In this document: one piece after another, positions 61,643 through 61,841 of the stretch
Position numbering within the stretch: the stretch's first letter is position 1
Layout: each line of letters begins with the position of its first letter
DNA from: Escherichia coli
GTDB lineage: Bacteria; Pseudomonadota; Gammaproteobacteria; Enterobacterales; Enterobacteriaceae
Length of the DNA: 64,000 nucleotides
Strand: one strand, 5' to 3'
Assembly: GCF_030384885.1 (NCBI RefSeq)
Contig: NZ_CP128613.1
Translations under genes and position numbers: made by a program
The notes under the pieces: model-generated
Told to the model about the DNA's origin: nothing
What the model saw: the letters and a program-made list of their open reading frames with translations, nothing else
The model's database searches: none

Positions 61643-61682
61643 TAATTGCCAATTCAGTTTATTGAGAAAGTGCATGTCATAA

Positions 61683-61782
61683 TGCCGGATGCGGCGTGAC
61701 CGTCTTATCCGACCTACAAAATCATGCAAATTCAATATATTGCGATACGCTGTCAGGCCTGATAAGCGTAGCGCATCAGGCA
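61683..61782. repeat. Two REP elements between ybiV and ybiT
   Basis: TGCCGGATGCGGCGTGACCGTCTTATCCGACCTAC and GTCAGGCCTGATAAGCGTAGCGCATCAGGCA. Confidence 0.75.
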
Positions 61783-61804
61783 ATTTTGCATTTGTCATCA
61801 GTTT

Positions 61805-61833
61805 CAGTAGCCCTGACCCTATCAGGGCTACTG
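61805..61833. terminator. Perfect hairpin between the convergent ybiV and ybiT; no strong U tract
   Basis: 11-bp stem AGTAGCCCTGA / TCAGGGCTACT with a 5-nt loop. Confidence 0.4.
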
Positions 61834-61841
61834 ATAATAAC

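Follow-up and report, generated by a model that had tools for sequence, protein, structure and literature searches.

Escherichia coli K-12 MG1655 carries ybiT (b0820), ybiU (b0821), ybiV (b0822) and ybiW (b0823) next to one another, whereas in the DNA analysed here, a 64-kb stretch deposited as E. coli and referred to below as the window, ybiV and ybiT are direct, convergent neighbours. This locus raises the questions of whether ybiU is truly absent, whether the gene was lost or had never been there, and what kind of event shaped the present junction. A sequence-only reading of the window had given the K-12 gene order correctly and had proposed that ybiU is missing because of a lineage-specific deletion or a REP-mediated rearrangement.

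Organization of the ybiV-ybiT gap

In the window, ybiV (60827-61642, plus strand) encodes 271 aa and ends with the stop codon TGA at 61640-61642, as established from its open reading frame, its translation and the annotation of matching genomes. The convergent gene ybiT (61842-63434, minus strand) encodes 530 aa and ends with TAA at 61842-61844, based on its open reading frame and on the annotation of matching genomes. The annotation of the matching RefSeq genomes describes the products as a sugar phosphatase and an ABC-F family ATPase, respectively. Both gene ends, 61642 and 61842, had been placed correctly by the sequence-only reading, and the gap between the two stop codons (61643-61841) is 199 bp. 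Its claim that ybiU is missing from this gap also holds, as tblastn with K-12 YbiU (421 aa, DUF1479) as the query found no YbiU-like sequence in the whole 64-kb window (best E = 2.1). Alignment of the interval to K-12, which the same reading had proposed as a check, left about 1.5 kb of K-12 DNA containing ybiU with no counterpart in the window. The PGAP annotation of strain 2013C-4282 has no gene between ybiV and ybiT, and the 199-bp spacer of this strain is identical to that of the window. Misassembly is possible in REP-rich DNA, for example by the collapse of a repeat at the REPs; however, this independent complete genome is 100% identical to the window over 499 bp spanning the junction and the identical arrangement is found in more than 1000 further complete genomes, so that an artefact of assembly or scanning is practically out of the question. 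The absence of ybiU between ybiV and ybiT is confirmed as real.

The gap features two REP elements, as had been read from the letters. REPs were recognized as imperfect palindromes of ~35 nt with the consensus GCC(G/T)GATGCG...CTTATC(A/C)G(G/A)CCTAC, using a fuzzy regular expression. REP1 (GCCGGATGCGGCGTGACCGTCTTATCCGACCTAC; 61684-61717, plus strand) is the left arm of a BIME and REP2 (GCCTGATGCGCTACGCTTATCAGGCCTGAC; 61752-61781, minus strand) is its right arm, inverted relative to REP1. Each of them lies within 1-2 substitutions of the consensus and is predicted to fold as a stem-loop. The two form an inverted pair ~34 nt apart, located outside genes between the convergent ybiV and ybiT, and are joined by a linker that was delimited by reading the sequence (61718-61751). 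The elements are also dispersed, since queries that contain the spacer yield a median of 18-19 matches per E. coli genome (19 for the query with REP1). By sequence and copy number the gap elements are REPs, and their inverted arrangement fits that of a BIME. An Rfam search of the gap returned sub-threshold matches alone, to REP-derived or unrelated sRNA families, among them a weak match of REP2 to the REP-derived family naRNA4.

The linker carries ATTCAATATATTG at 61730-61742, which differs at one position from the IHF consensus WATCAANNNNTTR and is regarded as a candidate IHF site. Linker-bearing pairs of this kind presumably belong to the BIME-1/RIP subtype, and the window pair resembles such elements in being inverted and extragenic, in its putative IHF motif and in being repeated in the window. 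Other REP pairs are located at 20944-21092 and 56388-56471 (REPs at ~20964-21061 and 56390-56469), and the entire BIME between ybiU and ybiT of K-12, linker included, matches window 20944-21092 at 81% identity by blastn.

The remaining element of the gap is a hairpin at the 3' end of ybiT (61804-61834, minus strand), which begins 7 nt downstream of the ybiT stop codon. The hairpin had been described as perfect with a stem of 11 bp; it is real and perfect, but the stem is 13 bp and encloses a loop of 5 nt. The two arms, 61804-61816 and 61822-61834, are 100% complementary and pair in the predicted folds of both strands, and the gap as a whole folds far more stably than shuffled controls (z = -6.7 and -5.5 for the two strands). 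The hairpin lacks the U-tract of a rho-independent terminator: there is no T-run after it on either strand, and 0 terminator-like sites were found in 61400-62100. The hairpin may have a protective role at the 3' end. All Escherichia alleles examined have a hairpin after the ybiT stop codon; three different stem sequences occur among them, and none has a U-tract.

Window positions 61680-61841 align with the K-12 ybiU-ybiT spacer at 88%; this stretch retains the two REPs with their linker and the hairpin, as well as a 22-nt spacer that is fully conserved. Between the hairpin of the window and that of K-12 (positions 5434-5464 of the K-12 locus, L001), four stem positions differ and all of the differences are compensated (A-T/C-G, A-T/C-G, G-C/A-T and T-A/C-G). 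Because each of the four changes is compensated on the other arm, the stem of the ybiT hairpin is evidently selected as a structure. The BIME and the hairpin were not made by the ybiU loss because both are found at the orthologous place in K-12, and this alignment shows them to be older than that loss.

Boundaries of the missing DNA and direction of change

A blastn comparison of the K-12 interval with the window gave two colinear blocks. The left block, L001 3701-3808, matches window 61527-61634 inside ybiV, and the right block, L001 5312-5600, matches window 61680-61968 at 88% identity. Between them, 1503 bp of K-12 (L001 3809-5311) correspond to 45 bp of the window (61635-61679). The DNA that is absent relative to K-12 comprises the ybiV terminator hairpin (CCGGAGCCGTGCGCTCCGG-TTTT), the region upstream of ybiU, ybiU itself (1266 bp) and 79 nt downstream of it. 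The left boundary is located in the last six codons of ybiV (61622-61639) and the right boundary lies 4 nt before REP1, where similarity begins at 61680. YbiV has 271 aa in both genomes, but its tail reads NKPPFTL in the window and NTSPFNS in K-12. In nearly all ybiU-bearing Enterobacteriaceae the tail is of the PFN/PFD type, with NTSPFNx in K-12 and most Citrobacter, and within Escherichia the NK[P/A]PFTL tail goes with alleles that have no ybiU.

The segment 61643-61679 is peculiar to the ybiU-less allele; blastn finds no counterpart of it in K-12, and both B2 E. coli and E. albertii have it in conserved form. In local alignments controlled by shuffling, the filler (61643-61682) showed no significant similarity, on either strand, to the K-12 allele or to two other alleles of the locus described below, U2 and the DUF6960 cassette. 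Its best match was 13 nt long and inverted, and was equalled by 9 of 300 shuffles among ten tests. MAFFT paired the sequence around the stop codon of ybiV, TTTGATAATT, with that around the stop codon of K-12 ybiU, TTTGAGAATT, and this pairing was treated as possibly due to chance. The junction is flanked by neither direct repeats nor remnants of an IS. The loss is not a simple excision because the ybiV tail and the 40 nt that follow differ from those of the ybiU-bearing allele; the interval may have been replaced, or may have changed in two steps.

The direction of the change was addressed with an outgroup scan that used YbiV as the query and one genome per species, and covered 46 loci. In about 35 outgroup species, which belong to at least eight genera, the gene directly downstream of ybiV is ybiU. 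The order ybiW-ybiV-ybiU was found in Citrobacter (many species), Klebsiella, Enterobacter, Lelliottia, Trabulsiella, Pluralibacter, Intestinirhabdus, Huaxiibacter and Raoultella, and nearly all of these outgroups feature a K-12-like terminator hairpin after ybiV. K-12-type ybiU DNA is 82-85.5% identical to that of Citrobacter, and the flanking genes of the same taxa are 84-85% (ybiW) and 79-80% (ybiV) identical. ybiU has thus diverged like its neighbours, which fits vertical descent. Since the outgroup synteny includes ybiU, the presence of the gene is ancestral and the allele of the window is a loss, and the comparison supports ybiU loss as a derived deletion.

The opposite direction, in which the absence of ybiU would be ancestral and the gene would have been inserted between ybiV and ybiT in K-12-like lineages, was also considered. 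The ybiU-less allele is present in E. albertii, the most basal Escherichia sampled, the ybiW flank tree places the ybiU-less lineage of the window outside the four E. coli that were sampled, and K-12-type ybiU is placed beside Citrobacter sp. MGH106 in a neighbour-joining tree. This placement hinted at an import of K-12 ybiU from Citrobacter, which was rejected because the identity does not exceed that of the neighbouring ybiW, so that there is no sign of recent import. An insertion is further opposed by the occurrence of ybiU after ybiV across the outgroup genera, and by K-12 and the outgroups having the same hairpin terminator and the same type of ybiV tail; we consider it very improbable.

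Two arrangements outside Escherichia are of a different kind. Salmonella enterica subsp. diarizonae is rearranged (L022 4477-9322), with ybiU lying upstream of ybiV on the other strand and ybiW lying downstream in inverted orientation, and it has a REP-like sequence after ybiV. In the Enterobacteriaceae UBA5654 and Superficieibacter (L030 and L031), both ybiU and ybiW are absent and ybiV is directly convergent with ybiT, an arrangement which indicates that ybiU was lost independently elsewhere.

Distribution of the junction and other alleles of the slot

The ybiU-less junction was counted in 5426 complete E. coli genomes with a 499-bp query centred on the junction that had to be covered to at least 80% in one place; ybiU-bearing genomes fall outside this count because the two halves of the query lie too far apart in them to be joined. 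The junction allele is present in 1052 of the 5426 genomes (~19%), including ATCC 25922 and 81009, which are phylogroup B2 strains. Any form of ybiU was found in 4329 genomes (4249 with the K-12-type query alone) and the DUF6960 cassette allele in 41. The three classes sum to 5422 of 5426; since this is nearly the total, they are close to mutually exclusive, and the census argues indirectly that genomes with the junction usually have no ybiU elsewhere.

ATCC 25922, 81009 and 2013C-4282 have the order ybiW-ybiV followed by convergent ybiT, with the same 199-bp spacer, filler, REPs and hairpin as the window. Nothing structural differs between the annotated carriers and the window, the flanking genes of which have diverged by ~4-5% from typical E. 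coli. Compared with K-12 MG1655, the flanking genes, the BIME, the 22-nt spacer and the ybiT hairpin are orthologous, and the differences are the ~1.5 kb with ybiU and the ybiV tail described above. The type strain of E. albertii has the same ybiV-ybiT junction. Alignment of the spacers of the window, ATCC 25922 and this type strain, each exactly 199 bp long, needs no gaps, and the identity is 91.5% between the window and ATCC 25922, 90.5% between the window and E. albertii, and 88.9% between ATCC 25922 and E. albertii. The flanking genes of the window and E. albertii are 93.8% (ybiW), 86.9% (ybiV) and 92.7% (ybiT) identical, which is a species-level difference. The same gap-free junction together with 8.5-11% divergence among its carriers indicates that one old event with shared breakpoints underlies all of them.

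The lineage of the window is itself unusual. At 54000-64000 (ybiW, ybiV and ybiT) the window is ~94-98% identical to typical E. coli. Identity to the window region of at least 99% was found in 2 of 5453 matching records, of which the best is 2013C-4282, and all others are at ~96%. The window branches just outside the four sampled E. coli in the tree of the ybiW flank, whereas the ybiV tree places it together with E. coli 30COLEC. From these comparisons, the source of the window looks like a rare, divergent Escherichia lineage deposited as E. coli, and possibly a cryptic clade.

The rarity of this lineage would suit a recent deletion confined to this genome or its closest relatives. However, the same junction architecture is found in the 1052 E. 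coli genomes and in E. albertii, and the spacers of the carriers differ at 8.5-11% of positions with no insertions or deletions, which makes a private deletion hardly credible. Of the proposed lineage-specific deletion, the deletion is supported by the outgroup synteny but its restriction to one lineage is not. The titles and abstracts found in a literature search on these genes do not mention this polymorphism. The ybiU-less junction is an ordinary pangenome polymorphism at a multi-allelic hotspot that existing annotations already show.

Several other alleles occupy the same slot between ybiV and ybiT, each with different DNA, and the window has none of them. U2 is a second ybiU allele at the same locus, with ~75-77% DNA identity to the K-12 type (U1), as compared over L001 3968-5233 and L053 3965-5224 (also L006 and L007). 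U2 is present in about 226-268 complete E. coli, is 95.8% identical to the copy of Escherichia sp. E1V33, and is ~75% identical to every other enterobacterial ybiU sampled; judged from these identities, it looks like an old replacement from another donor. The DUF6960 cassette is ~1 kb long; it encodes a hypothetical protein of 93 aa and a DUF6960 protein of 129 aa, and also contains a pseudogene fragment in antisense orientation. It replaces ybiU in the 41 E. coli (for example 30COLEC) and in E. whittamii (L003 3817-4848; L039 6817-7888). The cassette allele features an NK[P/A]PFTL ybiV tail like that of the window, no REPs, and a different, unrelated ybiT hairpin.

E. coli EC0430 carries an IS621 element (IS110 family; L004 4829-5809) in its ybiU-ybiT spacer, precisely at the edge of REP2 in the orthologous BIME. 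The insertion lies between locus positions 4723 and 6001, and in terms of the K-12 spacer the site is ...CTGCGTAG / GCCTGATAAGCG, where the slash marks the insertion point, with a 2-nt overlap of the flanks. IS621 reportedly targets REPs, and the EC0430 insertion fits this. In some E. coli an island with a LacI-family regulator, an MFS transporter and a TIM-barrel protein is located just after ybiU (L054 6233-11253) and replaces its last few codons, so that the protein ends in GIDS instead of GMDV. Escherichia sp. MOD1-EC7003 (L044 7150-7711) has the same island and a ybiU truncated at the 5' end to about its last 150 codons, in which tblastn aligned residues 275-359 before the frame breaks.

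Proposed history and consequences of the ybiU loss

We consider it highly probable that the ybiU-less allele is old and widespread and that it arose by a single loss of ~1.5 kb, which was followed by persistence or recombinational spread. The ancestor would have had ybiW-ybiV-ybiU and then convergent ybiT. A single event would have removed ~1.5 kb between the final six codons of ybiV and the outer edge of the pre-existing BIME, and with it the terminator of ybiV, the whole of ybiU with its promoter, and the ~79 nt that follow ybiU. It would have left a reshaped six-codon ybiV tail and ~40 nt of filler, followed by the original BIME and the ybiT 3' hairpin. The allele would then have persisted, or spread by homologous recombination, in E. 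albertii, ~19% of E. coli and the lineage of the window. The distribution is patchy, with the allele present in E. albertii, B2 and the window lineage and not in most E. coli or in Escherichia sp. E1V33, and this requires either a long-lived polymorphism or several recombinational transfers.

As to the nature of the event, the sequence-only reading had suggested a REP-mediated rearrangement. The right boundary, 4 nt from REP1, is suggestive of this, but there is no REP at the left boundary. In ybiU-bearing genomes the left breakpoint is an ordinary terminator, CCGGAGC...GCTCCGG-TTTT, so that a REP pair with one member at each breakpoint of the undeleted allele was not found, and recombination between two REPs is not supported for this reason. 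A wider form of the idea is that the loss occurred through REP-associated recombination or cleavage, such as a break made at the BIME by a REP-associated transposase or an IS element, and not through an unrelated illegitimate deletion. REPs are known for their fragility and for being targeted, which may be why the break lies at the outer edge of REP1. The resumption of similarity at 61680, the IS621 at the REP2 edge in EC0430, and the LacI/MFS/TIM-barrel island or DUF6960 cassette found at this position in other alleles are in keeping with such a mechanism; that both IS621 and islands have inserted at this one BIME speaks for a hotspot. However, the REP-free left boundary, the lack of direct repeats or IS remnants at the junction, and a 40-nt filler with no match in the compared alleles count against it, and a REP-associated origin of the loss is unlikely.

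The common ybiV tail of the window and cassette alleles hints at a common intermediate. Under a two-step history, the DUF6960 cassette allele or a common precursor would have brought in the NK[P/A]PFTL tail, the cassette would later have been lost, and recombination with a ybiU-type right flank would have restored the BIME and the hairpin. The tail is found in both ybiU-less alleles and is absent from all ybiU-bearing genomes examined, and the cassette allele must also be old since it occurs in both E. whittamii and E. coli. However, the two alleles have no significant similarity beyond the stop codon, and since the cassette allele has no REPs and a different ybiT hairpin, extra recombination steps would be needed, so that we regard two steps as quite unlikely compared with the single loss.

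A broader reading of the single loss is that the slot is a trans-species multi-allelic locus in which the deletion allele predates the split between E. coli and E. albertii and has been maintained beside at least four other occupants, namely the two ybiU alleles (75% DNA identity), the DUF6960 cassette and the sugar-utilisation island. This is a possibility to which we give limited credence. If it is true, YbiU would be under long-term balancing or niche-specific selection and the BIME would be a hotspot of recombination and insertion.

For the cell, the loss would mean the absence of the DUF1479 protein YbiU, for which the literature search gave no assigned function. ybiV would be left with no intrinsic terminator of its own, and its transcript would end at, or be stabilised by, the REP stem-loops and the ybiT hairpin. 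A protective role at mRNA 3' ends is the classical proposal for REP/BIME elements, and here the REP stem-loops together with the 13-bp hairpin would form a 3' end common to ybiV and the convergent ybiT.

On its own, the ybiU-less junction matters little, as it is a routine difference in accessory gene content that can be seen in more than 1000 annotated public genomes. ybiU belongs to the uncharacterised 'y-ome', and its absence from ~20% of complete E. coli genomes, well-known extraintestinal strains among them, indicates that the gene is dispensable and possibly niche-linked. The loss of the ybiV terminator provides a natural test of the BIME and hairpin as a 3' end for two convergent genes, and the ybiV-ybiT slot is a compact multi-allelic hotspot centred on a BIME, including an IS621 located exactly at a REP.
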